A DNA stretch of 64,000 nt from Gammaproteobacteria bacterium (GCA_047639475.1 JBLIOD010000007.1:18308-82307); one strand, 5' to 3'; shown: positions 3,529-63,667, counted from the first letter of the stretch. The notes: generated from the sequence alone by a model not told the origin. Numbers and translations: made by a program.

Positions 3529-3530
3529 GC

Positions 3531-20017: not shown

Positions 20018-20996
20018 CTATCCTGCGCAGGAAGGTATCCAGGCGTTAACCGCGTCAGCATTGCTTTCGATAAAGGCCGTTGCTGCGGAAGCGTGATCTA
20101 AACTGTCTACATCCACCAAAGCAGCTGCGGCATCGGTCATCGGGCCAGTGAAGTCAATATTGCTCATTAATTCATTGGCGCAAGGATACTTTTTAGCAAA
20201 CCCAGCCCAAAGGCCCTTTTTGAGATAGCCGCCTACTGTAGCGCCGCAATCATTCTATCATGTTGGGGTTGATTACCCAACTCGGATCAGTAGAACACTT
20301 TCTTTCAGTATCCCGTCTTGGGAATTCGATAAATTTGCCAGGGTAAGCTGCTCCCACCCAGTTTGGTGCCCAGTTAAATAATATGATGGGGTGTTTGCGC
20401 GGAGCTGCAGACTTAAGTTCTCCAAATAAAGCATCTGCGGACCCCGCATTTACAATGGTGACATCAATGTTTAAAGCTTCGATGCGCTTGATATCTACTG
20501 GGTGCCATTCCGCGGGTCCAGCAAGATAACGAGCCTTGGGAAAGGTTTCCGGCGTAGACAAAGCTTCAGCGCAGTCATTAAGGGCTTCCCAAGAGGGTAA
20601 GCTTGTGCAAACTGCTTCCATATAGTTGGGATACCACCATTCTTCTCGACTAGTGGCAGTGGTGACTTCCTCCGTCTATCATGCCGCCAGCACCAACTTC
20701 TTTCATGAAAGCAGCGTTCATGGAACCTTCCCATACTTCCATTTGGATATGTGCCTCTCGGCACTCATGGCGGCAAACTGATCTTGTGTGTTTAGTTTAA
20801 CGAGTTCTGTTTTGTAGCCTGATCTATCCAGGAGTTGTTGTGCTACAGGGGCTAGCACCTTTTGGATGGACCAGTTATTGTCTATAACTATGATTGGGTC
20901 GGCTTATTCTGGGGTGGCGGCCCAAGGCGTTGTGGCGATAGATAAGGCGGTTAGCGTGACTAAACTAGTGAATATTTTAGCTATTGTTTGGTTCAT
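20018..20996 (-). pseudogene. Decayed TmoX-like (glycine betaine family) periplasmic binding protein
   Basis: By manual translation, RBS+ATG at 20996 give a signal peptide MNQTIAKIFTSLVTLTALSIATTPWAATPE, then an in-frame TAA (20904-20906). Homology to the 28942-29880 protein continues in shifting frames (ADPIIVIDNNW..., AHIQMEVWEGSMNAAF..., TATSREEWWYPNYMEAVCTSLPSWEALNDC..IILFNWAPNW..FIEFP, ...AAALVDVDSLDHASAATAFIESNADAVNAWIPSCAG*). This gives at least 1 stop and 3 frameshifts. Confidence 0.8.
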
Positions 20997-21139
20997 GTTT
21001 CTCCTCATGATTTTAATCCGGAATAGTTTATATTGATTTCAACAATATTTTCCAGATCATTATGGTCAAGATTTTGAAAATTTTGGCAGCGGTCTGGTGA
21101 CGCTTATGCAACAGCAGCGACCGAAGAGTCTGGACTAAA

Positions 21140-22099
21140 TTATCCGATAGTTGCCTCAGCTTGCTCATCAGCATGATAAGACGAACGAACCATTGCGCCT
21201 GAAGCGACATTTTGAAAGCCCAGGTTTTCAGCGACTTCTTTCAATTGAATGAACTCTTCAGGCGTATAGTATTTCTCGACAGCTAAGTGGTGACGACTAG
21301 GTTGTAGATACTGGCCCAAGGTCAACATGTCGATATCGTATTCGCGCATGTCTTTCATTACCTCGATGACTTCTGCTGTCGTCTCGCCAAGCCCAAGCAT
21401 AATTCCCGATTTGGTTGGCACGCCTGGCATATGTGCCTTCACGTCACGTAGTAATTCAAGTGACACGATGTAGTCTGCACCTGGTCGCGCTTGCTTATAT
21501 AAGCGTGGAACGGTTTCTAAATTGTGGTTAAAGACGTCCGGCGGATTCTCGGCCAGAATTTCAATGGCGTGCTCGCGCGTTCTGCCACGGAAGTCGGGCG
21601 TGAGTATTTCTACTTTAATACCAGGATTCAGTGCATGGGTTTCTTTAACGCATTGCATTATGTGCTCTGCTCCGCCATCACGTAAATCGTCGCGATTTAC
21701 GGAGGTGATCACCACATACTTTAAGCCCATTTTCTGTATGGTTTCGGCCAAATGCTTGGGCTCAGCTTCATCCAAAGGATTTGGCCTGCCGTGTGCGACA
21801 TCACAGAATGGACAGCGACGGGTGCAGATATCTCCCATTACCAGAAAGGTGGCAGTGCCTTTGCTGAAACACTCTCCCAAGTTTGGGCAAGCTGCTTCTT
21901 CACATACAGTATGTAATTTATTCTCTCGGAGTATTTTTTTAAGTGCGATGACTTCTGGTGTGCCCGGAAAACTGGCACGTATCCATTGCGGTTTCCTAAG
22001 TACTTTATCCCTAGGACGCGGCGCGATTTTTACGGGGATGCGTGCGGTCTTGGCTTCACCGCGTAATTTTTCGCCTTGAACGACTGAAGGTTGTTTCAT
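21140..22099 (-). CDS. lipA: Lipoyl synthase
   Basis: 319 aa with [12 protein letters not shown] and radical-SAM [10 protein letters not shown] cysteine motifs. Confidence 0.95.
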
Positions 22100-22133
22100 C
22101 GGTTTATCCTAATCTAATCAGAGTCAATGTGAA

Positions 22134-25007
22134 TTACTGGTGCTCGTCTTCATCTAAATACGATTCCATCGGCGGGCAAGAGCAGTTTAAATTCTTGTCG
22201 CCATAGATATTATCGATTCGGCCAACAGGAGGCCAGTATTTATTGTGTTTTAAACCCGGCATCGGAAAGAACGCCATCTTTCTAGAATAAGGGTGCTCCC
22301 AATCTTCGATGTCAATTAATTGATTGCTGTGCGGCGCATTCTTTAATGGATTATCTTCTTTGTCCATTGCGCCTTTTTCGATAAGGGCAATTTCTCCACG
22401 AATTGACAGCATCGCACGAATAAACCGATCAATCTCAGATTTGGGCTCGCTCTCTGTGGGTTCTATCATTAGTGAGTCATGTACTGGCCATGACATAGTC
22501 GGAGAATGAAAGCCATAGTCCATCAAGCGCTTGGCAATATCTTCCACCAAAATACCAGCAGAGTCTTTAAAGGCGCTGCAATCAATAATACATTCGTGAG
22601 CAACACGCCCTTTGTCGCCAGTATAGCGCACGGGGTAAGCCTCTTTAAGTGCGCTAGCAATGTAGTTGGAGTTTAATATCGCAACGCGGGTGGCTTTGCT
22701 TAAACCTTGACTGCCTAACATTTTAACATAAGCCCAAGAAATGGTCAGGATGAGCGGAGAACCCCAAGGCGCTGCCGACACTGAGCCAATAGGCATGGCA
22801 TTGTGCGAATCATTAACACCATCAACCAATACGTGGTCAGGCAAAAAGGGTGCAAGGTGTTTTTTAACACCAATAGGACCCATGCCCGGGCCGCCACCGC
22901 CGTGCGGAATGGCGAAGGTTTTGTGTAAATTGAGATGAGATACATCTCCCCCAATGTCCCCCGGGCGAACCAGACCAATCATCGCATTGAGATTTGCACC
23001 ATCTAGATAAACTTGGCCGCCATGGTTGTGAGTGATTTGGCATACTTCTTGCACACTAGACTCAAATACCCCGAACGTAGAGGGATAGGTGATCATCAGC
23101 GCGGCAAGTTCATTACTGTGCTTGTCGGCTTTTTCGTTCAAGTCATCTAAGTCAATATTGCCTTCGGGGGTGCACTGAATAATCACCACCTTCATACCAG
23201 CCATCACAGCGCTGGCAGGATTGGTGCCGTGGGCCGACGAGGGGATAAGGCATATGGTGCGCTGTGAGTCACCGCGTGAAATATGATATTTACGTATACA
23301 AAGCAAACCAGCATATTCACCCTGAGAGCCCGCATTAGGCTGCATTGACAGAGAATCGTAACCGGTGATTTCACACAAGTCTCGAGAAAGCTCGTCAATA
23401 ATGGTCTTGTAACCTTTGGCTTGGTCAACAGGCACAAAAGGATGTAGTTTGGCAAACCTTGGATTAGATACCGAATCCATTTCGGTTGCTGAATTCAACT
23501 TCATGGTGCATGAGCCTAGCGGGATCATCGACCGGGCTAGCGTGATGTCTTTTTGTGACAAGCCCCTTAAAAAGCGCATCATTGCCGTTTCATTGCGATA
23601 CTCGCTAAAAACCTGATGGCTGAAGTAAGCTGTTGTTCGCATTAAACTCTTGGGTATGCTCTGTGCAGGTGTTTGGTTATCTACGATATCTTGAGAGCGT
23701 CTAAACGGCGAAGCGAAGGCATCTACCAATGCGTTGATGTGCTTTTCTTTGTGTGTTTCATCTAGCGTAATGCTGACAGAGTCATTATCGATGAATCGGA
23801 TATTGATATCATTTTCTAAGGCGGCATTAACGGCGCGCCGTGCTTGTCCTGGCGCAGAAATCAGTAATGTATCGAAATAGTGATCATTCACCACATTAAC
23901 GTTTATCTGCTTTAGCTTGTCAGCCATTAACCGGGTGTTGTGATTGATACGCTGTGCGATACGTTTTACACCATTAGGGCCATGATACACGCAGTACAAA
24001 GCAGCGATGATCGCCAACAGTGCTTGTGCGGTGCAGATATTGCTGGTTGCCTTTTCTCGTCGTATATGTTGCTCGCGAGTTTGTAAGGCCATGCGGTAAG
24101 CCGGGTCACCTTGTGCGTCGATCGATAAACCGATTATTCGCCCCGGCACTGACCGTTTATGTTGGTCCATAGTGGCGAAGTAGGCAGCATGTGGTCCACC
24201 GTAGCCCATCGGTACGCCAAAACGTTGAGTGGTGCCAATGGCGATGTCTGCGCCCATCTCGCCTGGAGACTTTAATACAGCCAGTGCCATGACATCTGCG
24301 CCCATAGTCACCAAGCCTTTGGCGGCTTGCACGGCCGCTATTTCTTCACTGTAGTCATGAATGATCCCTGTAGAAGCAGGGTATTGAATGAATGCCCCAT
24401 AGACATCTTGATCGACAAGGTCCGTTTTTGGATTACCTAAAATAATTTCGATACCCATCGGCTCTGCGCGGGTCTGCATTACCGCGATAGTTTGCGGGTG
24501 GGCATCACTGTCGACAAAATAGACCATGCTTTTGTTCTTAGACAAACGCTTGGACATGGTCATTGCTTCTGCTGCCGCGGTGGCTTCATCTAGCATCGAA
24601 GCGTTGGCAATTTCCATGCCCGTTAAGTCCATCACCATTTGCTGGAAAATCATCAAGGCTTCTAGGCGACCTTGCGCAATTTCTGGTTGGTAAGGCGTGT
24701 ATGCTGTATACCAATCAGGGTTTTCTAATACATTTCTTCTGATCACCGACGGCAGTCTGGTACCGTGATATCCGCAGCCTATCATCGACACGTGCCGCTC
24801 ATTCTCGTTGGCCAATTTAGCCAATTTACGTAGCGCGTCATCTTCATTTAGCGGCGCGCCTACATTCGGATCGCCGCAGCGCGGCAAGGACGCAGGTATG
24901 GTTTGGTCGATTAATTGTTCCATCGATTCCAAGCCCAATGCTTCAAGCATTTCTTGGCGTTCTTGAGGGTTGGTTCCTAAATGTCGAGCTGAAAATGGCT
25001 GTGGCAT
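22134..25007 (-). CDS. gcvP: Glycine dehydrogenase (decarboxylating), single-chain P protein
   Basis: 957 aa, full-length P protein, with a NLHKTF PLP-lysine block. Confidence 0.95.
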   Translation of the reverse strand: MPQPFSARHLGTNPQERQEMLEALGLESMEQLIDQTIPASLPRCGDPNVGAPLNEDDALRKLAKLANENERHVSMIGCGYHGTRLPSVIRRNVLENPDWYTAYTPYQPEIAQGRLEALMIFQQMVMDLTGMEIANASMLDEATAAAEAMTMSKRLSKNKSMVYFVDSDAHPQTIAVMQTRAEPMGIEIILGNPKTDLVDQDVYGAFIQYPASTGIIHDYSEEIAAVQAAKGLVTMGADVMALAVLKSPGEMGADIAIGTTQRFGVPMGYGGPHAAYFATMDQHKRSVPGRIIGLSIDAQGDPAYRMALQTREQHIRREKATSNICTAQALLAIIAALYCVYHGPNGVKRIAQRINHNTRLMADKLKQINVNVVNDHYFDTLLISAPGQARRAVNAALENDINIRFIDNDSVSITLDETHKEKHINALVDAFASPFRRSQDIVDNQTPAQSIPKSLMRTTAYFSHQVFSEYRNETAMMRFLRGLSQKDITLARSMIPLGSCTMKLNSATEMDSVSNPRFAKLHPFVPVDQAKGYKTIIDELSRDLCEITGYDSLSMQPNAGSQGEYAGLLCIRKYHISRGDSQRTICLIPSSAHGTNPASAVMAGMKVVIIQCTPEGNIDLDDLNEKADKHSNELAALMITYPSTFGVFESSVQEVCQITHNHGGQVYLDGANLNAMIGLVRPGDIGGDVSHLNLHKTFAIPHGGGGPGMGPIGVKKHLAPFLPDHVLVDGVNDSHNAMPIGSVSAAPWGSPLILTISWAYVKMLGSQGLSKATRVAILNSNYIASALKEAYPVRYTGDKGRVAHECIIDCSAFKDSAGILVEDIAKRLMDYGFHSPTMSWPVHDSLMIEPTESEPKSEIDRFIRAMLSIRGEIALIEKGAMDKEDNPLKNAPHSNQLIDIEDWEHPYSRKMAFFPMPGLKHNKYWPPVGRIDNIYGDKNLNCSCPPMESYLDEDEHQ

Positions 25008-25052: not shown

Positions 25053-25430
25053 TTAGCTGACAGATTCTACAAACTCAGCATAAGCTGCTGCGTCCATTAA
25101 ATTATCAAATTCGCCTTCATCAGCAGGTTTTACTTTATACAGCCAGCCTTCGCCTTCTGGTGAAGAGTTGACTGTTTCAGGTGCATCTTCCAATACTTCG
25201 TTGACTTCAATGACTTCGCCAGAAACAGGTGACTTAATATCACCGGCTGCTTTAACTGATTCAACTACCGCGCATTCGTCGCCTTGTGTGACTTCGCCAC
25301 CTACATCAGGTGCTTCCACATAGACGATGTCGCCTAACTGCTCCTGTGCAAAGTTAGTAATTCCTACGGTTACAACGCCGCCGTCTAAAGTTGCCCACTC
25401 GTGGTCTTTGGTAAATTTTGTATTACTCAT
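25053..25430 (-). CDS. gcvH: Glycine cleavage system H protein
   Basis: 125 aa with the lipoyl-lysine motif VESVKAAGDIKSPVSGEV. Confidence 0.95.
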   Translation of the reverse strand: MSNTKFTKDHEWATLDGGVVTVGITNFAQEQLGDIVYVEAPDVGGEVTQGDECAVVESVKAAGDIKSPVSGEVIEVNEVLEDAPETVNSSPEGEGWLYKVKPADEGEFDNLMDAAAYAEFVESVS

Positions 25431-25445: not shown

Positions 25446-26561
25446 TTAAATTCTATAAAAATTATTCTTAACGAAATCTGTTTTGCTAACTTCTGCTGGG
25501 TTTAGTTTACCCCTTACTTGTGCGTAGATGGTGGTGCCCAGTTTGCTATGGGCTTTAGTGACGTAGCCCATGGCAATAGGGTGTCCCAAGGTTGGACTAA
25601 ATCCGCCGCTGGTGATTTTACCAATTTCGTTACCTTCTTGGTCGGTGAGCAGAGTGCCTTCGCGCATGGGGGCGCGGCCAGCGGGTTTGATGCCTACCCG
25701 TTTGTGATCCACTTTGTTAGGCATTTGGGTTAGAACCGTATCGCTGCCAATGAAGCCACCTGCTCGGTCACCGCCTGTTCTTCGCACCGATGGTATGGCC
25801 CATGAGATAGCCGCTTCAACTGGGGTTGTCGTGGTGTCAATGTCATGGCCATATAAGCACATGCCGCCTTCTAGGCGTAAACTGTCGCGCGCACCTAAGC
25901 CTATCCATTCGCAGGCTTCGTGAGCTTGTAGTTGAGTGGCCAAAGCCAGTGCATCGTCATTATGAACTGAGATTTCAAAACCATCTTCGCCGCTATAGCC
26001 GCTTCGTGTAACGTAGCAGTCGGCGCCGTTTAAGGTAAGTTGCCAGCAATGCATAAATTCCATGCTGCTTAGATCATGGCCCATTTCTTCCAAAACAGTG
26101 TGCGCAGCAGGGCCTTGAATCGCAATTAAGGCCCTATCGTCCACGACCGTTAATACGGCATCACCTGTTAAGTGTGCATTGATATGTGCAAAGTCTTGAT
26201 TTTTACAAGCTGCATTTACCACCAACATGATTTTATCGCCCCAACGAGACACCATCAGGTCATCTTCTATACCCCCCTTTTCGTTGGTAAAAAAGCCGTA
26301 ACGTTGTTCACCATCTGTTAGATCGACGATATCGATTGGTATCAGCTTCTCTAACTCCCTGGCTGCGTCCTTTCCGGTGACCCAGGCTTGCCCCATGTGG
26401 GAAACGTCAAACAAGCCAGCAGCTTCGCGCGTATGTAAATGTTCTTTAAGCACACCTAAAGGGTATTGCACCGGCATGTTGTAGCCGGTGAAGGGCACCA
26501 TTTTGGCATCGTTTTCAATATGTAATGAGCTCAAAGCGGTTGAGAGTAAGGCTTCTGACAT
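25446..26561 (-). CDS. gcvT: Glycine cleavage system aminomethyltransferase T protein
   Basis: 371-aa GcvT-fold ORF (AGLFDVSHMG, YSGEDGFEIS blocks). First gene of the gcvT-H-P-lipA string. Confidence 0.92.
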   Translation of the reverse strand: MSEALLSTALSSLHIENDAKMVPFTGYNMPVQYPLGVLKEHLHTREAAGLFDVSHMGQAWVTGKDAARELEKLIPIDIVDLTDGEQRYGFFTNEKGGIEDDLMVSRWGDKIMLVVNAACKNQDFAHINAHLTGDAVLTVVDDRALIAIQGPAAHTVLEEMGHDLSSMEFMHCWQLTLNGADCYVTRSGYSGEDGFEISVHNDDALALATQLQAHEACEWIGLGARDSLRLEGGMCLYGHDIDTTTTPVEAAISWAIPSVRRTGGDRAGGFIGSDTVLTQMPNKVDHKRVGIKPAGRAPMREGTLLTDQEGNEIGKITSGGFSPTLGHPIAMGYVTKAHSKLGTTIYAQVRGKLNPAEVSKTDFVKNNFYRI

Positions 26562-26707: not shown

Positions 26708-27580
26708 ATGAGAAATTATCCTACTGAATTGCTACGAAGTTTCATTGCGGTACAAGATCACGGCGGCTTTAGTCTGGCTGCGGTGGCGGTGGGTAGATCA
26801 CAACCAGCTCTCTCATTACAGATAAAACGCTTGGAGACATTGGTGGGCAATGAACTGATTCGACGAACCAGTCGGGAAGTACAACTTACTGAAACGGGAG
26901 AGGTAGTGGCTACCTACGCTCGCCGAATTTTAGGACTGAATGATGAACTCACGTTTCGACTGGAAGAGTCTCAACTAAGTGGCACGGTTCGTTTAGGCAT
27001 ACCGAACGAATTCGCCATGTCATACCTACCCCAAATTTTAGGTGGGTTCTCTAAACGCTATCCTGATGTCAAGCTTGAGGTAGTAAGCCAATTATCTAGT
27101 GAATTATTGGATCAGCAGCGCGGTGAAAATTTGGATATTGTTATCGCCATTAATAAGGACCAAGTTTATGACCGTAAACCAGTCTGGTCTGATGATTTAG
27201 TTTGGGTTACTGGTAACGAGATTCCGGAAAACAGAAAAAGTGGTGTTGTCGCGCTGGTGGTGGCACCAGAAGGCTGTGTCTACCGCAGTAAGATGTTGGA
27301 AAGATTGAAAGAAGAAAAAATACCGTGGCGAATTGCCTACACGGGTACCAGCTATGGCGGCATTAGGGCTGCGGTAATGGCAGGCCTAGGCGTAACGGCA
27401 GTGGCGAGAAGCACGGTAGCCAATGAGTTGCAAGTGGTAAAACACTCCCTGCTATTGCCTAAACTAAGTAAGGTTGATGTACATTTGCATTACCTAAGTC
27501 GACAGCCAGCAGACTTAGTAGTACGTTTAGCCGAGTTCATACAGCAGAGTTTTGTGAGCGCTCCTATCAAAGGAACTTAA
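26708..27580 (+). CDS. LysR family transcriptional regulator
   Basis: 290 aa with an N-terminal wHTH (GGFSLAAVAVGRSQPALSLQIKRLE) and a LysR substrate-binding domain. Divergent from gcvT. Confidence 0.85.
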   Translation: MRNYPTELLRSFIAVQDHGGFSLAAVAVGRSQPALSLQIKRLETLVGNELIRRTSREVQLTETGEVVATYARRILGLNDELTFRLEESQLSGTVRLGIPNEFAMSYLPQILGGFSKRYPDVKLEVVSQLSSELLDQQRGENLDIVIAINKDQVYDRKPVWSDDLVWVTGNEIPENRKSGVVALVVAPEGCVYRSKMLERLKEEKIPWRIAYTGTSYGGIRAAVMAGLGVTAVARSTVANELQVVKHSLLLPKLSKVDVHLHYLSRQPADLVVRLAEFIQQSFVSAPIKGT

Positions 27581-27630
27581 AACATGACTGTTCCTTTTGT
27601 TGGTTTACCAGTTTGAAAGCCGGTGCAATA

Positions 27631-28566
27631 ATGCGGAACTCACGCCATCAATTACCCCCCCTAAATCCGCTGCCCGCATTTGAAGCTTCTGCGCGCCTGC
27701 TTAGCTTTACGTTAGCGGCTGAAGACTTGGGCGTTTCGCAAGCGGCGATTAGTCAGAGTATTAGTTCACTCGAAAAAAACTTGGGCCAAACGCTGTTTGA
27801 GCGTTCACCACGTAAAATTTCCCTAACCGGCTCAGGGCAACGGTTTCAACATGCTGTGACTGTGGCGCTTGATCTGATTGAAACATCTGCGGTGTCATTA
27901 AGAGGGCAGACTCCTTCAGAAGAGCTGGTGCTTGCTGCTGATGTATCGATGGCGCACCTTTGGCTGTTGCCACGATTTGGCTTTTTCCAAAAGGAGTTTC
28001 CAAATATCGAAGTATTGATTCTGGCGACTGACCGGGAGGAGGAGTGTTTGAGAGAGGGAGTAGACTTAGCCTTGTTATATGGAAATGGTAATTGGAAAGG
28101 CTACGATGCACACTTACTCATAAAGGAAGAGGTTTTTCCGATATGCAGTCCTGAATATATTAAACACAGGCCTCCAATTAACAAACCCGAGGATTTGCTC
28201 AACGAGACCTTGTTGGACCTTCAAGGGGTTCGCTGGGATTGGGTTGGTTGGCAAGCTTTGTTGGCCGGGAACGGTGTGACCTTAGGGGGCACAACTCAAA
28301 CTTATGGATTCAACAGTTTGCCACTGTTGACCCAAGCTGCTTTGTCAGGACAAGGAGTAGGTTTAGGTTGGGAATCGATGGTAGATGATCAACTTAAAGA
28401 TGGGTCTTTGGTTAAACCGGTTAATATTTCATTAAAAACTGGCCGCGGTTATTATGCGCTTAAGAAATCAAACCTAAGAATGTCACCGGAAGCCGAAATC
28501 CTGTTTGATTGGGTGATTCGAGCAAACCACAGCAATGTGGGCCCAGTGCTTGTAAAAGAGCTTTAA
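27631..28566 (+). CDS. LysR family transcriptional regulator (GcvA-like subfamily)
   Basis: LPPLNPLPAFEASARLLSFTLAAEDLGVSQAAISQSI is typical of GcvA/AmpR-like LysR proteins. I prefer the ATG at 27631 over the TTG at 27613. Confidence 0.8.
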   Translation: MRNSRHQLPPLNPLPAFEASARLLSFTLAAEDLGVSQAAISQSISSLEKNLGQTLFERSPRKISLTGSGQRFQHAVTVALDLIETSAVSLRGQTPSEELVLAADVSMAHLWLLPRFGFFQKEFPNIEVLILATDREEECLREGVDLALLYGNGNWKGYDAHLLIKEEVFPICSPEYIKHRPPINKPEDLLNETLLDLQGVRWDWVGWQALLAGNGVTLGGTTQTYGFNSLPLLTQAALSGQGVGLGWESMVDDQLKDGSLVKPVNISLKTGRGYYALKKSNLRMSPEAEILFDWVIRANHSNVGPVLVKEL

Positions 28567-36638: not shown

Positions 36639-36641
36639 CTT

Positions 36642-46227: not shown

Positions 46228-46451
46228 TCTCGCTTTAGAAAATTCTATATAATTGTCGGACAGGTTTGAGTTGTACCAAAATGCTTTGCAAAAATCGGAT
46301 TCTCCAGTATCGGTGGGTGCAAAACATAGCCTAACTCTATCAAAACTATGGTTCAAACCCATGCTATACCAAACAACATGCGTAGGCATAAACGATTTGA
46401 CACGGTTATGTGAACCCCGTTATAACTACTATACACTTTTAATAAGATGAT

Positions 46452-47563: not shown

Positions 47564-47567
47564 AAAA

Positions 47568-48239: not shown

Positions 48240-48244
48240 AGGAT

Positions 48245-53736: not shown

Positions 53737-54344
53737 TTGTAGAGCTCTTGTTTTTTAGGAATGGTGCCTGGGCTTTCCGCATCGACGCGAAAGCCTAAAT
53801 AAGCGCCCATCTCACGTGAAAAATGGTCAATGTTAATGAGTGATAAGCCGCAGCCATTACACTCTGAGATATCTGTTGTAACGCCTTCATTAAGTGTTTC
53901 GCAGTGTGGGCAATACACTTGACGTGCAGAAGAGCCGTTCAGCTCCATGTTTATTTCACTTTTATGCATGCCGTGTTTGCTGGCAAGTTGATGGATTTTC
54001 CATAAGAAGGCTTCAGAGCCACTGATGTATAAGCGCAACCCCATAAAGCTTTTTTCTAAAATGTTAGGTAAGGCTGCAAGTAACGCATCCTTGTCTTCAA
54101 ATCGGCTTACTTTTGAGCAACGGTCTGTTGTAAAGTAAGCTTGAGCATAAGCCTTTTCAACGTCTTTGCCGGTATATAAGAACGTAGTGGCAGCCGAAGA
54201 AATGGTGTCGCTGTTGTTCAATAAATTGATCAAGCCGATTAAGCCATCCCCTTCGCCAATGAATAAATTCCAACGTGACAACGGGTCATGTTGAAGCTTA
54301 GTGTATTGTGGCTTGCTACGAATTCCAGAAGTGGTTTCTGCCAT
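53733..54344 (-). CDS. dmmA: Small subunit with tetracysteine zinc-ribbon, DmmA-like
   Basis: 203 aa with a CPHC...(14)...CNGC motif. 4-nt overlap with dmmB. Confidence 0.6.
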   Translation of the reverse strand: MAETTSGIRSKPQYTKLQHDPLSRWNLFIGEGDGLIGLINLLNNSDTISSAATTFLYTGKDVEKAYAQAYFTTDRCSKVSRFEDKDALLAALPNILEKSFMGLRLYISGSEAFLWKIHQLASKHGMHKSEINMELNGSSARQVYCPHCETLNEGVTTDISECNGCGLSLINIDHFSREMGAYLGFRVDAESPGTIPKKQELYK

Positions 54345-55706: not shown

Positions 55707-56011
55707 GATGGTGACCTCGTGGGAATAATTTAGAAGCTAGGAAAAACTGAATCTTACCAATTTTTGGTTTTAATTTGAAATAACTGAAGCGTGCCGGAAT
55801 GCCAGCGTTCCAAAAGTTATTAACATTAAGGGCGACTATAGAGATATTGGAGCACTACTGGAATAGCTAAAATGATGCCAAATATATACCAATAGTTGGT
55901 CCAATAACGAACAGCAAACTGAGTTAATGGATCAGACTCTTTCTTATGTGGCAAACAAAGACCAACCTCACGATCGTGTTCTTATGGGTCGGCCATACTA
56001 GAGTAAGCTAG

Positions 56012-56081: not shown

Positions 56082-56777
56082 TTAAAGCGTGCCGTCCAAA
56101 TCTGCACGTGCTCGGCGTAAATGTTCAGTCATTATTTCCATGGCTCGCGGCGCATCGCGGCGCTTGATAGCGCTTAACATGGCGCGATGTTGCATGTTGT
56201 AATGATCTATGGCTTCGGGTGTCAGTACATTGTCTTTGCGTGCAGTCCATTGGGTATGGCTGCGTATATCATTGATGCGTTGATACATCCAAATCAGCAA
56301 CGGGTTTTGAGAGCATTGCGCTAATATCAGATGGAAGGTTTCGTCTGCTATTGAAAATGCATCCGAATCATCTCGAGTTCTTTCCAATTGGGTGACCGCA
56401 TCCTCTAGTTGGCGTAGGTCACGGTTACTGGCGTTAGTCACTGCCAGCTTAACTATATAAGGCTCGATAGCGATACGCGTCTGAATTAACTCCATTGGGC
56501 TGGTGTCTTCAGCAATGTCGTCCTTTTGGAATTGCGGATTATAAATCGCAAAGGTTCCGCTGCCGGTTTTTATTCTGACTAGATGAGATTTTTCTAAGCG
56601 CTGCAAAGCGGAGCGTATTGTGCCACGTGCTACATTATAGGCGGCCGCCAGTTCTCTCTCTGGGGGTAATCGTTCATCATATTGATAGTGGCCGCTAAGG
56701 ATGGCTTCCTTTAGGTGTACGTATACACCTGTTGAGCCTTTAATGACGTGACTGAGTTGTGGTTCTTCTATGTTCAT
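56082..56777 (-). CDS. GntR family transcriptional regulator (FadR/FCD-type C-terminal domain)
   Basis: 231 aa with an N-terminal wHTH (LPPERELAAAYNVARGTIRSALQRLE) and a helical FCD-like C-domain. Divergent from the second cassette. Confidence 0.85.
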   Translation of the reverse strand: MNIEEPQLSHVIKGSTGVYVHLKEAILSGHYQYDERLPPERELAAAYNVARGTIRSALQRLEKSHLVRIKTGSGTFAIYNPQFQKDDIAEDTSPMELIQTRIAIEPYIVKLAVTNASNRDLRQLEDAVTQLERTRDDSDAFSIADETFHLILAQCSQNPLLIWMYQRINDIRSHTQWTARKDNVLTPEAIDHYNMQHRAMLSAIKRRDAPRAMEIMTEHLRRARADLDGTL

Positions 56778-57004: not shown

Positions 57005-58348
57005 ATGGCAATACCAACTTCAGCGAAATACTTAATCATAGGAGCAGGCATACATGGTCTTAGTACTGCTTATCATTTAGCGCTTAACTTAAAGGCGCAA
57101 GGTAAAGGTGACGGTAGTGATATACTTATTATAGACAAAGATTCTATTGCAGCCGGCGCTTCGGGTATTGCTTGTGGTGTAGTACGTAATAACTACTTTC
57201 AACCGGCAATGCGTGAGTTAATGGCGCAATGCGTGGAAGTATGGGAAAGCGACATGGAAGCTTTTAGCTACCATCCAGTTGGTTATATGCAGATAAGCCC
57301 AGAAAGCATGCATGATGATGTTGCCACTATTGCGAAACAGCAAAAAGAAATTGGTTATGAATCTACCTTCATCGAAGGTGAGAAAGATTCAATGGATTAC
57401 ATGAAAGGCATCTTTCATGATTGGCAGGCGAAAGGCATCACGTCTGTTCTACATGAAAAGAAGGGTGGTTTCTCTAACAACACTAAGGCAATGTACGGCT
57501 TAGCGAAGAAAGCAGAAGGTGAGGGCGTTCGTATTCAAGCAGGCGTTACCGTCACTGGCTTTGAGCGTGATAGTGGTTCTGAAGCAGTGCGTGCGGTTAT
57601 AACCGATAAAGGCAACATCCAGTGTGATCAATTGGTTATCGCACCTGGCCCGTGGGCCAAGCAAATGTGGGATATGTTAGACCTACAAAAAACAGTAGAT
57701 ATCAAGGCTGCTGACGGCACCATTCATACAGATATCCCGATGTGGATTTACTGGTCTTTACAAGAAGGCACTTTGGGCGTTGATCCAGAAATGCAAAAGA
57801 CCAACGATGGCAAAGCACCGCCTGTTATTCACGTTGACTCAAATGAGCCACTATATTCAGACCTTGACGGTAGCTTAGTAACAGATGAAATGTGGGGTAT
57901 TTACTACAAGCCTGATTTTCACTTTAACGGCATTCAAGGCGGCGCAGCACCGTTCCCCATTACCACGCCTCCAGACGAAGTAGCGGTTGATCCATACGGC
58001 GTTGATTCGCCTGATTTCGTGGTGGGCGAAGATTTCGCACACATGTGGGTGTCTGCATTGGCGCATTGTCAAAAGCGTTTTGAAGGCCAAATGGTTAACT
58101 ACAGCAGTGAGCCATCGGGTGGAATTGGTTCATTTACGCCAGATAGCTTCCCAGTATTCGATCAATTCGTTGATAACGTCTACCTAATCGCTGATTCAAA
58201 TCACGGTTATAAGATGATTGGTGTAGGAAAATTAGTCGCACAAGAATTATGTGGTGAACCTAGCGCATTGTTAGAACCTTTTAGATTCTCGCGATATGCG
58301 GAAGGTAAGCTTCACCCTGTATCAAGTAGCCCGTTCCCATGGAGCTAA
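57005..58348 (+). CDS. DAO-family FAD-dependent oxidoreductase (sarcosine oxidase beta / PuuB-like)
   Basis: 447 aa with an N-terminal Rossmann YLIIGAGIHGLSTAYHLA, a GASGIACGVVR block and a C-terminal SNHGYKMIGVG block. Confidence 0.8.
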   Translation: MAIPTSAKYLIIGAGIHGLSTAYHLALNLKAQGKGDGSDILIIDKDSIAAGASGIACGVVRNNYFQPAMRELMAQCVEVWESDMEAFSYHPVGYMQISPESMHDDVATIAKQQKEIGYESTFIEGEKDSMDYMKGIFHDWQAKGITSVLHEKKGGFSNNTKAMYGLAKKAEGEGVRIQAGVTVTGFERDSGSEAVRAVITDKGNIQCDQLVIAPGPWAKQMWDMLDLQKTVDIKAADGTIHTDIPMWIYWSLQEGTLGVDPEMQKTNDGKAPPVIHVDSNEPLYSDLDGSLVTDEMWGIYYKPDFHFNGIQGGAAPFPITTPPDEVAVDPYGVDSPDFVVGEDFAHMWVSALAHCQKRFEGQMVNYSSEPSGGIGSFTPDSFPVFDQFVDNVYLIADSNHGYKMIGVGKLVAQELCGEPSALLEPFRFSRYAEGKLHPVSSSPFPWS

Positions 58349-58444
58349 CGGCGTTGTCAGAGTAGTTAAGTAATTTGTTCCAAAAAAATCAAAAATAGTC
58401 GCAACTGTAAAGTTGCAAGTTTATAAATCAAGAGAGGAGAGAAA

Positions 58445-59932
58445 ATGGCTAATGCCCAAGATTCAACCGACCTAGAACAAACCGTTAACGCCCTAGGGCG
58501 TGCAGAGTTGGTTAAGCAGGTTCGTGAGAAAATTAAAGAAACCGGCGTAACTTATATTTACTTCCAATTTGTATCTGTAACGGGTCGTATCGTTGGTAAA
58601 GGTATCCCTGCAGATCATTGGGAGCGCATCGCTGAGAAAGGTTTCCAGTTGGTCTACGGTTCTACTGCTAACCTATTTGTTGATCGTCATGGCGATTATA
58701 TTGGTTACGGTCCAGAAGCTTCAGAGTTGGTGGGTATTCCTGACCCAGAGACTTTCTGTCAGTTACCTTGGGATAAGCGAATCGCACGCGTTTTCTGTAC
58801 TTGTTACCGTAACCGTGAAGAGAAAGTTAACCCAGGTCAACACTTAACATCAGACTGTCGTGGTAACTTAAAGCGTATCGACGCTGAGTTCCAAGAAAAG
58901 CATGACATGCACATGCGCTGCGGTACTGAGCCAGAAATGATGTGGTTAACGCTAGACGAGGACAAGAAAGTCAATGGCGGCGTAACCAAGCCAAATTGTT
59001 ATCACATTGACCAATTCGAAGAGCTACGCCCTGCCTTCATGCAAGTGATGGAGTATGGCCAAGCGATGGGCTATGACATGATCCAAGGTGATCACGAAGA
59101 TGCCCCGGGTCAGTTAGAACTAAACTGGCAGTTCGATGATGTATTGAAAAATGCGGATCGTCTAACCACTTACCGTCAAATTTGCGCACAGGTTGCACGT
59201 GAAAAAGGCTTACACGCTTGCTTCATGTCCAAGCCTTTCATGAATGTATCGGCTTCGGGTTGTCACCATAACGTATCGTTATGGACAGGCGGCGAACTGA
59301 AAGTGAATAACTTACATCAAGAAATTCGTGGTGGTATGGATGACGTGTTCTCATACAGAGAAGGCGGCCACAACCACTTTATGCCAGTTCCAGAACTTGA
59401 CCAGTACAAGCCAGGACCTATTGGTTTACATTCAATCGGTGGTGTTATCAAGCATTTACCGGCGATGACGGCTATCGGTTCTTCAACGGTTAACTCTTAT
59501 CGCCGCTTATGGGATACCGGTTTCTGGGCACCTATCTTCGCTGATTGGGGCTACCAAAACCGTACCTGCGCCTTGCGTGTATCGGCGCCGGGTCGTTTTG
59601 AGTATCGCTCTGTTGACTCAATGGTTAATCCTTACTTGATGGGCGGTGCGATTTATAAAGCGTTCGAAGATGGTATTGAAAACAAGTTGGATCCAGGCGA
59701 CCCTGAAGAGCGTAATATTTACGCTGCAATGGAAGCAGGTAAAGACGTTAAGAAGTTACCAATGACATTAGGCGACGCTTTGACTGAGTTGAAGAATGAC
59801 GAAGTCATTAAGTCTTCAATGCCTGACGAAATGTACAGGGTTTATCATCATTACAAGAATGACGAGTGGGAGCGTTTTAACCACAGCGTGTCTGATTGGG
59901 ATATGGAAAACTACATCGATTGCTTGCCATAA
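58445..59932 (+). CDS. Glutamine synthetase-like ATP-dependent ligase, divergent paralog of the gmaS-like gene
   Basis: 495 aa with a strong RBS (AGAGAGGAGAGAAAATG) and GS blocks (GTEPEMMW, GDHEDAPGQLELN, ASGCHHNVS, NSYRR, RFEYRSVD). It has an N-terminal extension and an internal insertion relative to the 435-aa paralog. Confidence 0.8.
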   Translation: MANAQDSTDLEQTVNALGRAELVKQVREKIKETGVTYIYFQFVSVTGRIVGKGIPADHWERIAEKGFQLVYGSTANLFVDRHGDYIGYGPEASELVGIPDPETFCQLPWDKRIARVFCTCYRNREEKVNPGQHLTSDCRGNLKRIDAEFQEKHDMHMRCGTEPEMMWLTLDEDKKVNGGVTKPNCYHIDQFEELRPAFMQVMEYGQAMGYDMIQGDHEDAPGQLELNWQFDDVLKNADRLTTYRQICAQVAREKGLHACFMSKPFMNVSASGCHHNVSLWTGGELKVNNLHQEIRGGMDDVFSYREGGHNHFMPVPELDQYKPGPIGLHSIGGVIKHLPAMTAIGSSTVNSYRRLWDTGFWAPIFADWGYQNRTCALRVSAPGRFEYRSVDSMVNPYLMGGAIYKAFEDGIENKLDPGDPEERNIYAAMEAGKDVKKLPMTLGDALTELKNDEVIKSSMPDEMYRVYHHYKNDEWERFNHSVSDWDMENYIDCLP

Positions 59933-60085
59933 AGCCAGCTCGGGTACATAGGAGCAACAACTGAAATCGGTGCTGTCGCAGCAATGCGGCCGCACCATCC
60001 ATCGTGATTCTTAACTTATCTGTCCTCGGACAGAGGGTCACGTTCAACCTACACAATTTAATATAAACCAGAGAGGATTAGCTTT

Positions 60086-61021
60086 ATGTGTGGAATCGCA
60101 GGACTTATCCATAAGGGTAAAAGCTCAGATATAGGCACAGAAATGACGTCTATGCTGCAGTCCCTTAAACACCGCGGGCCTGATTCAACAGGCTACGCGT
60201 TATACGGTACACCCGATGACAGTCAGTACGTGATGCGCTTTATTTGCGCAGAACAAGAAGACATGAAATCGGGTTTTGAAATTCATCAAGAAGTTATCGA
60301 GCGTCAAGCAGAAGTAGACAGGCGTTTACTTTCTTTGGGTGCAAAGATAATTGATAAAGACATCGCGACAGAATATGCGCACCGTTACACTTTTTCTTAT
60401 GACGGCGATATGCGCAAGCTAGCTGACTATGTAGAAGATGTCGAAGGTGCTGAGATTTTATCAATCGGTCGTGGTCTTGAACTAATCAAAGACTTGGGCG
60501 ACGCCAGTGTTGTTTGCGATCAGTATTCTTTAAACGGCTTTCAGGGCACGCATGCAATTGGTCACACCCGAATGGCGACTGAATCAGATATTGATATCCG
60601 TTCAGCTCACCCCTATTGGGCATACCCATTTAACGACGTATCAGTAGTACACAACGGTCAGTTGACCAATTACTGGACTTTCCGTCGCGCCATGGAGCGT
60701 AACGGTCACCGTTTCGTTTCTAACTGTGACTCTGAGCTGATTGCGGTGTACATCGCTGATCGCATGGAGAAAGGAGATGAGCTTGAAGAAGCTATGAACC
60801 GCAGTGTCAATGAATTGGACGGTGTATTCACCTATTTAGTAGCCACTAGCGATCAGCTAGGCATGGCTAAAGACGTAATGGCGGCAAAACCAATGGTGCT
60901 CTATGAAAGCGATACGTTCGTTGGCTTGGCATCAGAGGAAGTAGCAATCCGTAGTATTTTCCCCGAGCGTATTAAAACTTGGGACCCATATGAAGGCGAG
61001 GTAAGAGTATGGCAGGCGTAG
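60086..61021 (+). CDS. Class II (Ntn) glutamine amidotransferase-like subunit, divergent mgsA paralog
   Basis: 311 aa with MCGIAG nucleophile Cys and HAIGHTRMATES and VVHNGQLTN blocks. Confidence 0.8.
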   Translation: MCGIAGLIHKGKSSDIGTEMTSMLQSLKHRGPDSTGYALYGTPDDSQYVMRFICAEQEDMKSGFEIHQEVIERQAEVDRRLLSLGAKIIDKDIATEYAHRYTFSYDGDMRKLADYVEDVEGAEILSIGRGLELIKDLGDASVVCDQYSLNGFQGTHAIGHTRMATESDIDIRSAHPYWAYPFNDVSVVHNGQLTNYWTFRRAMERNGHRFVSNCDSELIAVYIADRMEKGDELEEAMNRSVNELDGVFTYLVATSDQLGMAKDVMAAKPMVLYESDTFVGLASEEVAIRSIFPERIKTWDPYEGEVRVWQA

Positions 61022-61851
61022 AGAAAACATCCCATGAAATGGGACTGCATGCCGAGCAGTTAAGCGGCAGAACTCAGCAGCGCTTTTTTAGCGCATCTGA
61101 AGAAGAGAACTTCACTTACCCATGGGGCATGGAAGTTGACTATAACAAGTCAGCGACTATCGATGCCAAAGACATGTTGCCCACTGAAATCAATATCAAG
61201 ATTCGTGAGTTGATGTTAGACGGCGTGGGTTCAATTACTTTGAACAACCCAATGTCTCAACATGCGATAGGTGTGGGTATTTTGAATCGTTTGAACCTGA
61301 CTATCGACGGCAGCTTAGGCTATTTCGGTTGTGGTTTGATCGACGGTCCAAACGTGACTATCACAGGCCGCGTTGGTTGGTCTTGCGCTGAAAATATGAT
61401 GGCGGGAACCGTTATTATCGAAGAGAACGCAGGTTCTACTTTCGGTGCGGCTATACGCGGCGGTGACTTAGTTTGTCGTGGCGACGTCGGTTCACGTACT
61501 GGCATCGACCAAAAGGGCGGCACCATTATTGTGGGTGGACGCACTGGCGCTTTCTCTGGTTTCATGATGCAACGTGGCCGCATGGTTATTTGCGGCAATG
61601 CAGGCAAGAACTTAGGCGACTCGATGTACGACGGCACCATTTTTGTTGGCGGTGAAGTTGAAGATTGTGGTGTTGACTGTGTCCCTGGCGAATTGAATGA
61701 AGTTGACGTTAAGTGGCTAACGCATAAGTTAGGCATGTACAACATTAAGCCAGCCTGCGGAAGCATCGACAAAATGCAAAAATTCGTATCAGGCAAGCAG
61801 CTTTGGAACTACGATAACTTAGAGCCTTCTGAGAAGAAGCTAGTTCTTTAA
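61009..61851 (+). CDS. GXGXG-motif beta-helix subunit, divergent mgsB paralog
   Basis: 280 aa. The start overlaps the previous gene by 13 nt. GXGXG turns (ITGRVGWSCAENMMAGTVIIEENA...) and an ~55-aa N-terminal extension relative to the 223-aa paralog. Confidence 0.75.
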   Translation: MAGVEKTSHEMGLHAEQLSGRTQQRFFSASEEENFTYPWGMEVDYNKSATIDAKDMLPTEINIKIRELMLDGVGSITLNNPMSQHAIGVGILNRLNLTIDGSLGYFGCGLIDGPNVTITGRVGWSCAENMMAGTVIIEENAGSTFGAAIRGGDLVCRGDVGSRTGIDQKGGTIIVGGRTGAFSGFMMQRGRMVICGNAGKNLGDSMYDGTIFVGGEVEDCGVDCVPGELNEVDVKWLTHKLGMYNIKPACGSIDKMQKFVSGKQLWNYDNLEPSEKKLVL

Positions 61852-61875
61852 CTGACCCTATAAAGAGGAAATATT

Positions 61876-63213
61876 ATGTCTACTAAAAGAGATACCAACC
61901 ACCTAGGTCAGAGTTTTATCTTTCCGCCTGCGGTGATGGATGATATCCATGTAAAAGCAGAGTTAGGCCGCTATCGTATGCGTGGCTTTTCTTTGTTCAA
62001 GAAAATCCCATCTTGGGACGATTTGACTTTCATGCCCGGTACGCTAACGCGCTTCGTAATCGAAGGTTATCGTGAAAAGTGCTTAACCAAGACCATTATC
62101 GGTCCTATGTGTAAGCGACCATTGGAACTTGATATTCCTGTTTACATCACAGGTATGAGTTTCGGTGCACTGTCTTATGAAGCAAAAACTGCGCTAGCGC
62201 GCGGCGCCACTATGGCTGGAACAGCAACTTGTTCTGGTGAAGGCGGCATGATTCCTGACGAGCGTCGTTATTCAGAGAAGTGGATGTACCAGTGTATCCA
62301 ATCTCGTTACGGCTTTAACCCTAGCCATTTACGTTTAGCTGATTGCGTTGAATTTTTCATCGGGCAAGGCTGTAAGGTGGGTTTAGGGGGGCACTTGATG
62401 GGCCAAAAGGTAACGGATCAAGTAGCTGAAATGCGTTCATTACCTGCGGGTATCGACCAGCGTTCACCTGCGCGTCACCCTGATTGGTTAGGTCCTGATG
62501 ATTTGGCACTGAAGATCAACGAAATTCGCGAAGCGACTGATGGTCAGATTCCAATTCAGCTTAAATTAGGTGCAGCACGTGTGTATGATGACGTGCGTAT
62601 GGCCGCTAAAACAGGTCCGGATTCAATCTACATCGACGGTATGGAAGGCGGCACAGGTGCTGGCCCTCACTTAGCGACTGAAGAAACCGGCGTTCCTGGT
62701 ATTGCCGCGATTCGTCAAGCGCGTCGTGCAATTGAGGACGTGGGCAAGTCGGGTGAGATTTCACTGGTTTATGCTGGCGGTATTCGTAACGGTGGTGACT
62801 TAGCAAAAGCATTGGCTCTAGGCGCTGACGCGGTGGCGATCGGTCACTCAGCTTTGATGGCATTGAACTGTAACAAAGACATCGACGAGGCTGATTTCCC
62901 GAATGAAATGGGCGTAGAAGCTGGTCATTGTTATCACTGTCACACAGGTCGTTGCCCAGTGGGTGTTGCGACTCAGGATCCAGAACTGCGTAAGCGTCTG
63001 AACCCTGATGCGGCAGCCGAGCGTGTATATAACTTCTTACACACTTTAACGATCGAAGCGCAGTTGTTAGCACGTGCTTGCGGCAAGACAAACATTCATT
63101 CATTAGAGCCAGAAGATATTGCGGCTTTAACAATGGAAGCGTCTGCGCTAGCGCAAGTTCCATTAGCAGGTAGCCAACATACAGTTGGTCGCCCTGATAT
63201 GACACGCTTCTAA
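61876..63213 (+). CDS. FMN-dependent GltS domain-2-like subunit retaining a GltS-type Cys motif, divergent mgsC paralog
   Basis: 445 aa with blocks ITGMSFGALS, DGMEGGTGAGP and AGGIRNGGDLAKALALGADAV, plus CYHCHTGRCPVGVATQDP. Confidence 0.8.
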   Translation: MSTKRDTNHLGQSFIFPPAVMDDIHVKAELGRYRMRGFSLFKKIPSWDDLTFMPGTLTRFVIEGYREKCLTKTIIGPMCKRPLELDIPVYITGMSFGALSYEAKTALARGATMAGTATCSGEGGMIPDERRYSEKWMYQCIQSRYGFNPSHLRLADCVEFFIGQGCKVGLGGHLMGQKVTDQVAEMRSLPAGIDQRSPARHPDWLGPDDLALKINEIREATDGQIPIQLKLGAARVYDDVRMAAKTGPDSIYIDGMEGGTGAGPHLATEETGVPGIAAIRQARRAIEDVGKSGEISLVYAGGIRNGGDLAKALALGADAVAIGHSALMALNCNKDIDEADFPNEMGVEAGHCYHCHTGRCPVGVATQDPELRKRLNPDAAAERVYNFLHTLTIEAQLLARACGKTNIHSLEPEDIAALTMEASALAQVPLAGSQHTVGRPDMTRF

Positions 63214-63222
63214 GAGGATTAT

Positions 63223-63609
63223 ATGATGAGTGAAAATGTCGATAAGTTTATTGAAGAAGACGGTTTAGATTCTAACCGTGAGCAAGAGATCGGTCAGCAC
63301 ATTGGTTATCGTTACGACGTTAACTTGGTGCCTGACATGGATCGCTGCCCGCCTTTCTTAACTAAGTACATGGATATTATGGGCTGGACTGACCTTAATT
63401 GGTTGGAAGACGTTCACATGGGCTATGAAGAAGGCAGACCGGCCGTATTTGATAGAAATATCAATGGTTGGGTGCAGATTCCAGAGACGATTGATTTGCC
63501 GGATAACCAGCAAGATCGAGACATGATTGCACGTGAGTTGCTAATCAAGTTTCAAATGTCTAAAGACCACCCAATGGTGGACTTAGTAAAGGCATACAAG
63601 AAGTTCTAG
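63223..63609 (+). CDS. Orphan acidic 128-aa protein, function unknown
   Basis: Starts 9 nt after the FMN-subunit stop (RBS AAGAGGA) and is followed by a strong terminator. No TM segment or signal peptide, and no family recognised. Confidence 0.5.
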   Translation: MMSENVDKFIEEDGLDSNREQEIGQHIGYRYDVNLVPDMDRCPPFLTKYMDIMGWTDLNWLEDVHMGYEEGRPAVFDRNINGWVQIPETIDLPDNQQDRDMIARELLIKFQMSKDHPMVDLVKAYKKF

Positions 63610-63623
63610 TTTACACTTCTGTT

Positions 63624-63667
63624 ACCGCTTTACTGGAGACGCTCCTGTTCAGTAAAGCGGTTTTTTA
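63624..63667 (+). terminator. Rho-independent terminator ending the second cassette
   Basis: Perfect 12-bp stem ACCGCTTTACTG / CAGTAAAGCGGT followed by TTTTTT. Confidence 0.85.

Follow-up and report, generated by a model that had tools for sequence, protein, structure and literature searches.

The breakdown of methylated amines via TmoXVW, Tmm, Tdm, DmmDABC, GmaS, MgsABC and MgdABCD, as well as the clustering of the respective genes, has been established in Ruegeria pomeroyi and Methylocella. In R. pomeroyi DSS-3, the cluster SPO1548-SPO1588 comprises tmoXWV, tmm, tdm, dmmDABC, gmaS, mgsABC, mgdABCD and tmaR. Lidbury et al. (2017) described SAR11 and abundant marine Gamma- and Deltaproteobacteria as lacking dmmDABC, which they called a metabolic bottleneck, and named an amine oxidase of SAR11 as an untested candidate. 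A study from 2022 reported that the SAR11 strain HTCC1062 grows with trimethylamine N-oxide (TMAO) as nitrogen source and suggested an unknown Dmm isoenzyme. For UBA868, a preprint (bioRxiv 10.64898/2026.04.01.715867) describes the genomic capacity for oxidation of TMAO, trimethylamine, dimethylamine (DMA) and monomethylamine (MMA) by way of gamma-glutamylmethylamide as well as N-methylglutamate, together with a complete serine cycle. Here, we analyse a stretch of 64,000 nucleotides from a gammaproteobacterium (GCA_047639475.1, JBLIOD010000007.1:18308-82307), in the following called the window, which carries about 44 kb of methylated-amine and one-carbon (C1) genes at positions 20018-63667. 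Within this 44-kb stretch, a second module of six genes (57005-63609) is paralogous to gmaS and mgsABC and orthologous to SAR11_1304-1309.

We regard the 44-kb stretch as very probably a chromosomal supercluster for the catabolism of methylated amines in a marine gammaproteobacterium, in which an oxidoreductase of the second module would provide the demethylation step. Such a supercluster is largely expected, as methylated-amine clusters are known in Roseobacters and SAR11 and, for UBA868 Arenicellales, have been reported already. Within the stretch, only the second module is not routine.

Uptake and demethylation genes

Gene identities were first proposed in a first-pass annotation from the sequence, and all of them were upheld by profile or structure-sequence searches. 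The inventory itself was incomplete, since about 10 kb had been overlooked, comprising a second importer, a pseudogene and the second module. All coordinates below are window positions, with the strand given as + or -.

The gene tmoX (28942-29880, +) matches PDB entry 4XZ6 at 1e-72, and its product is 61-64% identical to those SAR11 tmoX orthologues which adjoin tdm. It is followed by tmoV (29995-31050, +), encoding a ProV-type ATPase, and tmoW (31065-33125, +), encoding a ProW-type protein of 686 aa with two permease repeats. With a TmoX-type binding protein beside tdm, an ATPase and a fused permease, TmoXVW has the composition of a TMAO importer of the ATP-binding cassette (ABC) type and is predicted to act as such. 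The adjacent tdm (33169-35538, +) codes for a protein of 789 aa that scores 1137.9 bits against NF053776 (cut-off 1100) over residues 22-785, and its Pfam architecture is DUF1989, GCV_T and GCV_T_C. We thus annotate it at equivalog level as the putative TMAO demethylase.

The genes for a DMA monooxygenase are located on the opposite strand in the published order D-A-B-C. DmmD (54612-55706, -) is the GcvT-fold, tetrahydrofolate (THF)-binding subunit with GCV_T and GCV_T_C domains. DmmA (53733-54344, -) carries DmmA-like_N and DmmA-like_C domains, and DmmB (52780-53736, -) combines an FNR-like part (PaaE/BenC-like) with a 2Fe-2S ferredoxin domain. DmmC (51744-52754, -) matches the alpha subunit of HODM (5LTE) at 1.6e-138 as well as Pfam HODM_asu-like, which completes the subunit set of a DmmDABC/HODM-type enzyme.

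As proposed in the first-pass annotation, three separate GcvT-fold modules are present, namely in GcvT, in the C-terminus of Tdm and in DmmD. They share 28-32% mutual identity, and of the other two modules, the Tdm C-terminus is the nearer to DmmD. The Tdm module extends over about 34405-35502 (+) and hence starts somewhat before the position 34500 that had been given for it. In the literature, DmmD is accepted as a THF-binding formaldehyde trap.

For MMA, we find mgsA-mgsB-mgsC (46667-49588, +), encoding an N-methylglutamate synthase with GATase-II, GXGXG and Glu_synthase domains. The three subunits correspond to the N-terminal nucleophile amidotransferase, the GXGXG protein and the flavin mononucleotide-dependent Glu_synthase protein expected of MgsABC, and MgsA begins with MCG. 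Directly downstream, gmaS (49638-50945, +) codes for a gamma-glutamylmethylamide synthetase, which reaches 670 bits against TIGR03105 (cut-off 469.6). The protein has Trp at the position of the flap Glu of glutamine synthetase (GS) and Ala at that of Asp50', in agreement with a genuine GmaS.

A second ligase and synthase module

The second module starts with an oxidoreductase of the DAO family (57005-58348, +), which is predicted to bind flavin adenine dinucleotide and is referred to as DAO in the following. It is the orthologue of SAR11_1304, annotated as 'monomeric sarcosine oxidase', and shows 60-61% identity to the SAR11 gene located between tdm and a GS-like gene. The Pfam model DAO covers only residues 9-226. 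Some sources name the homologues 'methylglutamate dehydrogenase subunit A' or '4-methylaminobutanoate oxidase (formaldehyde-forming)'.

The second gene (58445-59932, +), here called GS2, encodes a GmaS-like glutamate-amine ligase paralogue of 495 aa and is orthologous to SAR11_1305. GS2 obtains 306 bits against TIGR03105 and thus remains below the equivalog cut-off of 469.6 bits. Its identity to the GmaS of the window is 28-31%, with three lineage-specific insertions or deletions. The catalytic residues Q/D/E/E/N are conserved, while Trp stands in for the flap Glu and Tyr for Asp50'. Also retained are the amine-pocket and catalytic residues that were assigned in the structure paper on RhGmaS. 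Because these GmaS residues are kept, the flap carries Trp and Asp50' is missing, GS2 resembles a ligase for organic amines rather than a glutamine synthetase. By its scores and alignment, GS2 nevertheless appears as a family separate from GmaS, despite its GmaS-like catalytic features.

The ligase is followed by glx2A-glx2B-glx2C (60086-63213, +), a paralogue of MgsABC with a four-Cys motif. Glx2A, Glx2B and Glx2C are 32%, 37% and 50% identical to MgsA, MgsB and MgsC, respectively. The N-terminal nucleophile sequence MCG of Glx2A is found in 62 out of 67 orthologues. In Glx2C (61876-63213, +), the four cysteines are located around residues 330-360 and form the motif NC...(17 aa)...CxxCxxxxCP, which is kept in 59 of 61 orthologues. 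The MgsC of the window does not have this motif, and it is seen in one of the eight open reading frames (ORFs) from the compared loci which match MgsC best. In alignments with the solved GltB structures (7MFM, 1EA0), three of the four, namely the Cys of the NC pair and the final two of the motif, coincide with cysteines of GltB. We take these GltB residues to be the ligands of its 3Fe-4S cluster. This suggests that the motif is a putative Fe-S site, and that the second synthase may exchange electrons with a partner.

The module ends with an orphan protein of 128 aa (63223-63609, +) that follows glx2C and is the orthologue of SAR11_1309. It matches no Pfam or NCBIfam family, and its AlphaFold2 model, with a predicted local distance difference test (pLDDT) score of 71, yields no PDB fold match with E < 1. 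At least 8000 homologues exist, all of them unnamed, and about 80% identity is retained across classes.

Relatives of GS2 occur in at least 562 species genomes, as found in a scan with one genome per species. The best 80 relatives are 72-84% identical and include Arenicellales, Ca. Poriferihabitaceae, SUP05/Thioglobus, Rhodospirillales and many Pelagibacteraceae. SAR324 contigs carry the second module, too. To describe the gene context, we took 52 loci with a length of at least 18 kb and counted the genes lying no more than 10 kb from the module. GS2 is present in 52/52 of these, Glx2A, Glx2B and Glx2C in 50/52 each, and the 128-aa protein in 49/52. The most frequent neighbours are amt (33/52), tdm (29/52), DAO (28/52), gntR (26/52) and gmaS (13/52), while dmmA, dmmB or dmmC was found in none of the 52 loci.

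In SAR11, tmoWVX (-) is followed by tdm, DAO, GS2, Glx2ABC, the small protein, amt, mgsABC and gmaS on one strand. The blocks tmoXVW, tdm, amt and mgsABC-gmaS are also grouped in the loci of SAR324, SUP05 and Arenicellales. In one SAR324 locus (L004, 15252-16234), a 2Fe-2S ferredoxin gene and an unassigned gene of 198 aa lie between the small protein and DAO. In the UBA868 isolate IMCC55707, folD and fhs come directly after the module (L096, 16699-19317). Since fhs also follows the module in our window, the module is tied to C1-THF metabolism.

When we compared the junction of dmm and the second module with 13 other metagenome contigs bearing dmmC and with the 52 module loci, dmmDABC adjoining the module was seen only in this population and in a sister genome of 85% nucleotide identity. 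In the synteny comparison that had been proposed in the first-pass annotation, the component blocks recur in relatives, yet their order varies, and only this genus-level lineage shows the complete arrangement.

Our literature search found no paper that gives SAR11_1304-1309 a function, nor one that describes a pathway via dimethylglutamate or glutamyl-dimethylamide. The sole relevant remark was that SAR11_1304 might be an amine oxidase.

Accompanying genes, regulators and flanks

The left part of the stretch is occupied by glycine cleavage genes. On the minus strand, we find lipA (lipoyl synthase, 21140-22099), gcvP (22134-25007, 1389.7 bits), gcvH (25053-25430, 172 bits) and gcvT (25446-26561, 515.9 bits), all above their NCBIfam cut-offs, such that the P, H and T proteins of the glycine cleavage system are represented. 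The gene for the L protein, lpdA, is not encoded in the window; the L protein is usually a shared component.

Between lipA and the rhomboid protease gene to its left, there is a decayed and frameshifted tmoX-like pseudogene (20018-21008, -). A tblastn comparison with the TmoX of the window gives 34% identity over residues 4-303 in frames -1, -2 and -3, and the ORF fragments match Pfam OpuAC. Four independent metagenome assemblies share identical breaks. This excludes assembly errors as the source of the fragments and marks them as a true pseudogene.

Downstream of tdm lies a second ABC importer of the ProV/ProW/ProX type (35613-38867, -), recognised by NCBIfam and Pfam OpuAC. Its binding protein matches PDB entry 7YLE at 1.6e-28 and also ProX (1R9L), and it is 23% identical to TmoX. 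A quaternary amine or a betaine is the putative ligand, which we infer from these matches.

A triad of genes related to serine and glycerate comes next. It consists of a D-2-hydroxyacid dehydrogenase (39192-40178, -; NCBIfam, family level), an AGXT-type aminotransferase (40559-41782, +) and a glycerate 2-kinase of the MOFRL type (41877-43118, +), the latter by NCBIfam and by the MOFRL/DUF4147 assignment of an identical gene. The aminotransferase matches AGXT and serine-pyruvate aminotransferase structures in PDB down to 1e-26 and appears to represent a divergent subfamily. No Pfam match was obtained for it at E <= 0.001. The subsequent amt (43915-45216, -) belongs to the (methyl)ammonium transporter family, with matches to TIGR00836 and to a marine-subtype model that stay below cut-off. 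Two short hydrophobic ORFs are located beside amt, one of 84 aa (43161-43415, +), which is assigned to the CBU_0592 family on an identical contig, and one of 55 aa (43729-43896, -). A short ORF after amt is also seen in SAR324 and Arenicellales loci.

Four regulators are encoded within the stretch, and paiB (15441-16088) lies outside of it. Two belong to the LysR family, one at 26708-27580 (+, NCBIfam) and one, GcvA-like, at 27613-28566 (+), which reaches 246 bits with the GcvA model and is thus below the cut-off of 288. An XRE-cupin regulator (45565-46389, -; Pfam HTH_3 and Cupin_2) is divergent from mgsA; in SUP05 and other loci, its orthologue is flanked by amt and the GS-like gene. A GntR/FCD regulator (56082-56777, -; NCBIfam GntR family) is divergent from the second module, and in 26 of the 52 related loci a gntR orthologue is found directly upstream of the module. 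Two perfect TACCAATnnTTGGT palindromes are located upstream of dmmD at 55755-55768 and 55887-55900. They are the sole two zero-mismatch copies within the 64-kb window, and this pair is a candidate operator that may bind a regulator. A search of the gntR region for a shared operator yielded no convincing palindromes other than these two and no motif in common with the dao promoter beyond chance. Rfam searches, run at the gathering threshold and at E <= 0.1, gave no RNA or riboswitch match in the window, including the regions upstream of gcvT and amt.

By GS2 of the window, the nearest named relatives are Arenicellales metagenome-assembled genomes (MAGs; 83-84%); Ca. Poriferihabitaceae and further Gammaproteobacteria come next. 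The host is therefore treated here as an uncultured, presumably Arenicellales-like marine gammaproteobacterium. Proteins identical to those of the window are found on contigs of several JGI and Logan marine metagenomes, and one JGI contig covers the last 10.8 kb at 99.99% identity. The proteins matching exactly carry the NCBI label 'Saprospiraceae' (Bacteroidota). We reject this taxon as the likely source, since every close relative belongs to the Arenicellales or elsewhere in the Gammaproteobacteria; for the same reason, the MAG contig labelled Saprospiraceae is probably mis-binned.

To the left of the stretch, positions 1-19 kb represent core chromosome with genes for type II secretion, RecJ, CysM, PyrC, PyrB and AlgH, and further encode a TonB protein, PaiB, AcnA and a rhomboid protease. 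The type II secretion run (gspF, H, J, K and L with adjacent genes; 223-6288, +) forms the left end of the window and is unrelated to the cluster.

Proposed route, rival readings and known systems

Gene identities, domain architectures, synteny and conservation are direct observations in this analysis, and from these a route can be sketched. By homology, TmoXVW would import TMAO, Tdm would convert it to DMA, and the HODM-type DmmDABC would demethylate DMA to MMA. GmaS would then form gamma-glutamylmethylamide from MMA, and MgsABC would convert the latter to N-methylglutamate. Again by homology, formaldehyde from each demethylation is expected to enter methylene-THF via the GcvT-fold modules of Tdm and DmmD. 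The C1 units could be oxidised, with Fhs, encoded by the next gene after the window, interconverting formyl-THF and formate. Serine derived from methylene-THF could be led via hydroxypyruvate and glycerate to 2-phosphoglycerate by the triad, and the glycine cleavage system would balance glycine against methylene-THF. The second module presumably constitutes a parallel, glutamate-mediated route of N-demethylation, in which DAO would demethylate N-methylglutamate or a related N-alkylglutamate. We infer DAO as the oxidative demethylation step because no mgdABCD genes are nearby. GS2 and Glx2ABC may handle MMA in parallel or another amine, of which DMA is the most interesting one. The four regulators would coordinate the blocks. 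Predictions of this scheme are the substrates for both the second importer and the second module, as well as the direction of flux and the co-regulation.

Several observations weigh against this reading. DAO gives weak matches (about 1e-8) to SoxB and dimethylglycine oxidase structures in PDB, restricted to the N-terminal half, and its AlphaFold2 model is unusable (pLDDT 52). About half of the 52 loci have no DAO within 10 kb of the module. Genes resembling mgdABCD or soxBDAG are present neither in the window nor in the 10 kb downstream, and tmm, glyA and folD are not in the window, as had been noted before. By contrast, fhs (formate-THF ligase), previously counted among the missing steps, starts only 45 nt past the window end (L093, 10823-12496). 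Moreover, the Roseobacter cluster is under the control of the AraC-type regulator TmaR, which has no counterpart here, and the stretch is divided over both strands into at least eight transcription units, with four unrelated regulators, which does not by itself point to a single co-regulated supercluster. Finally, the triad proteins lie below the equivalog cut-offs and are identified at family level, and the triad could serve general serine and glyoxylate metabolism. The claim that every N-methyl group is passed into the THF pool is nonetheless in agreement with the folate domains of Tdm and DmmD, the adjacent fhs, the folD-fhs pair in IMCC55707 and the UBA868 preprint, while channelling as such is a matter of interpretation. 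For the further route to serine and glycerate, the window holds, at family level, the aminotransferase, the reductase and the glycerate kinase; glyA and the genes for malate thiokinase, malyl-CoA lyase and phosphoenolpyruvate carboxylase are not in it.

The number of regulators and transcription units on both strands, together with the differing block order in relatives and the lineage-confined arrangement, would also fit a set of merely juxtaposed, separately regulated operons. These would serve mainly nitrogen scavenging and energy, with C1 units passing to CO2 via folD and fhs, and would not form an assimilatory methylotrophy locus; the gcv genes and the triad would belong to ordinary glycine, serine and glyoxylate metabolism or to betaine catabolism. 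The position of fhs at the window end, the betaine-type importer between tdm and the triad, and the lack of glyA, mtk, mcl and ppc in the window are consistent with this, and in SAR11 and SUP05 these genes are, according to the literature, employed solely to gain energy. We consider it possible but not probable: the complete serine cycle is reported for related genomes in the UBA868 preprint, the triad is located between tdm and the amt-mgs-gmaS genes, which is not a random placement, and the tmo-tdm operon with its regulators has lipA-gcvPHT as its immediate neighbour. Acquisition of the whole region as a catabolic island by horizontal transfer is far less plausible and was set aside. IS3-family transposase remnants are found about 5 kb downstream of the window, and the sister genome has a DDE_Tnp_1 transposase exactly between dmmD and gntR (L092, 1502-2653) and additionally an IS110 element downstream. 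These remnants and the transposase of the sister genome indicate that block boundaries were rearranged, and the junction of dmm and the second module, unique to this lineage, is a rearrangement point. Nevertheless, the hallmarks of a genomic island are missing from the window. GC content is 42-50% throughout (2-kb windows), and the GC content at third codon positions is 0.38-0.52 per gene and alike on both sides of the 20-kb boundary. There is no tRNA gene and no transposase or integrase among the ORFs, the flanking genes are housekeeping genes, and the component blocks are widespread in related clades, where they are vertically conserved. The first-pass annotation, which had seen no mobile or tRNA genes and had asked for a compositional check, is supported in this regard.

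A further alternative concerns the second module itself, which could be a dmm-independent route for DMA. GS2 would glutamylate DMA, Glx2ABC would form N,N-dimethylglutamate and DAO would demethylate it stepwise, or else DAO would oxidise DMA directly; in this genome, the module would then coexist with DmmDABC. The module is present in SAR11, SUP05/Thioglobus and SAR324, and thus in groups such as those reported to lack dmmDABC (Lidbury et al. 2017), and HTCC1062 grows on TMAO nitrogen although SAR11 has no dmmDABC. In SAR11, it stands in pathway order between tdm and amt-mgsABC-gmaS on one strand, which makes it the obvious positional candidate for a Dmm replacement in that clade. The frequent vicinity of tdm with no dmmABC nearby, the folD-fhs genes behind the module in IMCC55707, the published strong induction of SAR11_1304 by nitrogen limitation and the lack of an assigned function for the module in the papers we found point in the same direction, all of this being contextual evidence. 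A window that holds dmmDABC and the module side by side speaks, however, against a simple functional equivalence. Likewise, the SAR11 GS2 and Glx2C proteins fall under nitrogen limitation while DAO rises, about half of the loci have no DAO close to the module, and GS2 and GmaS share identical polar residues in the amine pocket, such that the sequence gives no hint of a secondary amine. Altogether, we judge this alternative to be unlikely. The broader proposal, that DAO, GS2, Glx2ABC and the 128-aa protein form an undescribed glutamate-mediated route, e.g., with gamma-glutamyl-dimethylamide and N,N-dimethylglutamate as intermediates, which would allow DMA use without DmmDABC in SAR11, SUP05, SAR324 and Arenicellales, the marine bacteria of highest abundance, is doubtful as well and is put forward as a tentative idea.

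The supercluster reading, which we prefer, extends the known pathway layout to an uncultured Arenicellales-like lineage and brings together uptake, the three steps of demethylation, C1 handling linked to THF and a glycerate route within 44 kb. Methylated amines are a major labile nitrogen pool of the ocean and aerosol precursors. The second module is among the most conserved and widespread gene sets of bacterioplankton and occurs in clades reported to be without a known way of DMA removal. If it were the missing DMA step, estimates of marine DMA turnover from dmm gene counts would be wrong and the published DMA bottleneck would be filled. This would be directly testable in cultured UBA868 or SAR11 strains, and a genome with both routes adjacent would provide a natural test case.

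Compared with R. pomeroyi, the window has in common tmoXVW, tdm, the D-A-B-C order of dmm, mgsABC, gmaS and the GcvT modules in Tdm and DmmD. It is without tmm, mgdABCD and the AraC-type TmaR; its regulators are LysR, XRE-cupin and GntR proteins instead. In addition, it contains lipA-gcvPHT, the triad, the betaine-type importer and the DAO/GS2/Glx2ABC module. The HODM of Pseudomonas mendocina (5LTE) shares with the window its predicted make-up of four subunits, with a PAS-haem alpha subunit that is homologous over its full length (1.6e-138), an FNR/2Fe-2S beta subunit, a GcvT-fold gamma subunit and a small delta subunit. From the N-methylglutamate pathway of Methyloversatilis universalis and Methylocella silvestris, the window has gmaS and mgsABC, including the flap Trp, and the second module repeats the logic of a ligase plus a three-subunit synthase. 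The four-subunit dehydrogenase of that pathway is missing, and a single divergent DAO is found in the second module instead. The four-Cys motif, which has no counterpart in MgsC, and the 128-aa protein are further differences.

The UBA868 isolates IMCC57338 and IMCC55707 belong to the same order, Arenicellales, as the nearest relatives of the window, and carry the DAO-GS2-Glx2ABC-small protein module. In IMCC55707, the module proteins are only about 76-91% identical to those of the window, and the gene order is a different one, with no dmm or tdm within 10 kb of the module. SAR11 HTCC1062 matches the window family for family in tmoXVW, tdm, DAO, GS2, Glx2ABC, the small protein, amt, mgsABC and gmaS, at 48-84% identity. 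By position and annotation, and with the locus numbering of PMC3160333 and PMC3870248, tdm corresponds to SAR11_1303, DAO to SAR11_1304, GS2 to SAR11_1305 (glnT), Glx2C to SAR11_1308 (gltB2), amt to SAR11_1310, mgsABC to SAR11_1313-1315 (glxBCD) and gmaS to SAR11_1316 (glnT). SAR11 is without dmmDABC and has its genes co-directional in pathway order, whereas the blocks of the window are rearranged, with dmmDABC inserted between gmaS and gntR.

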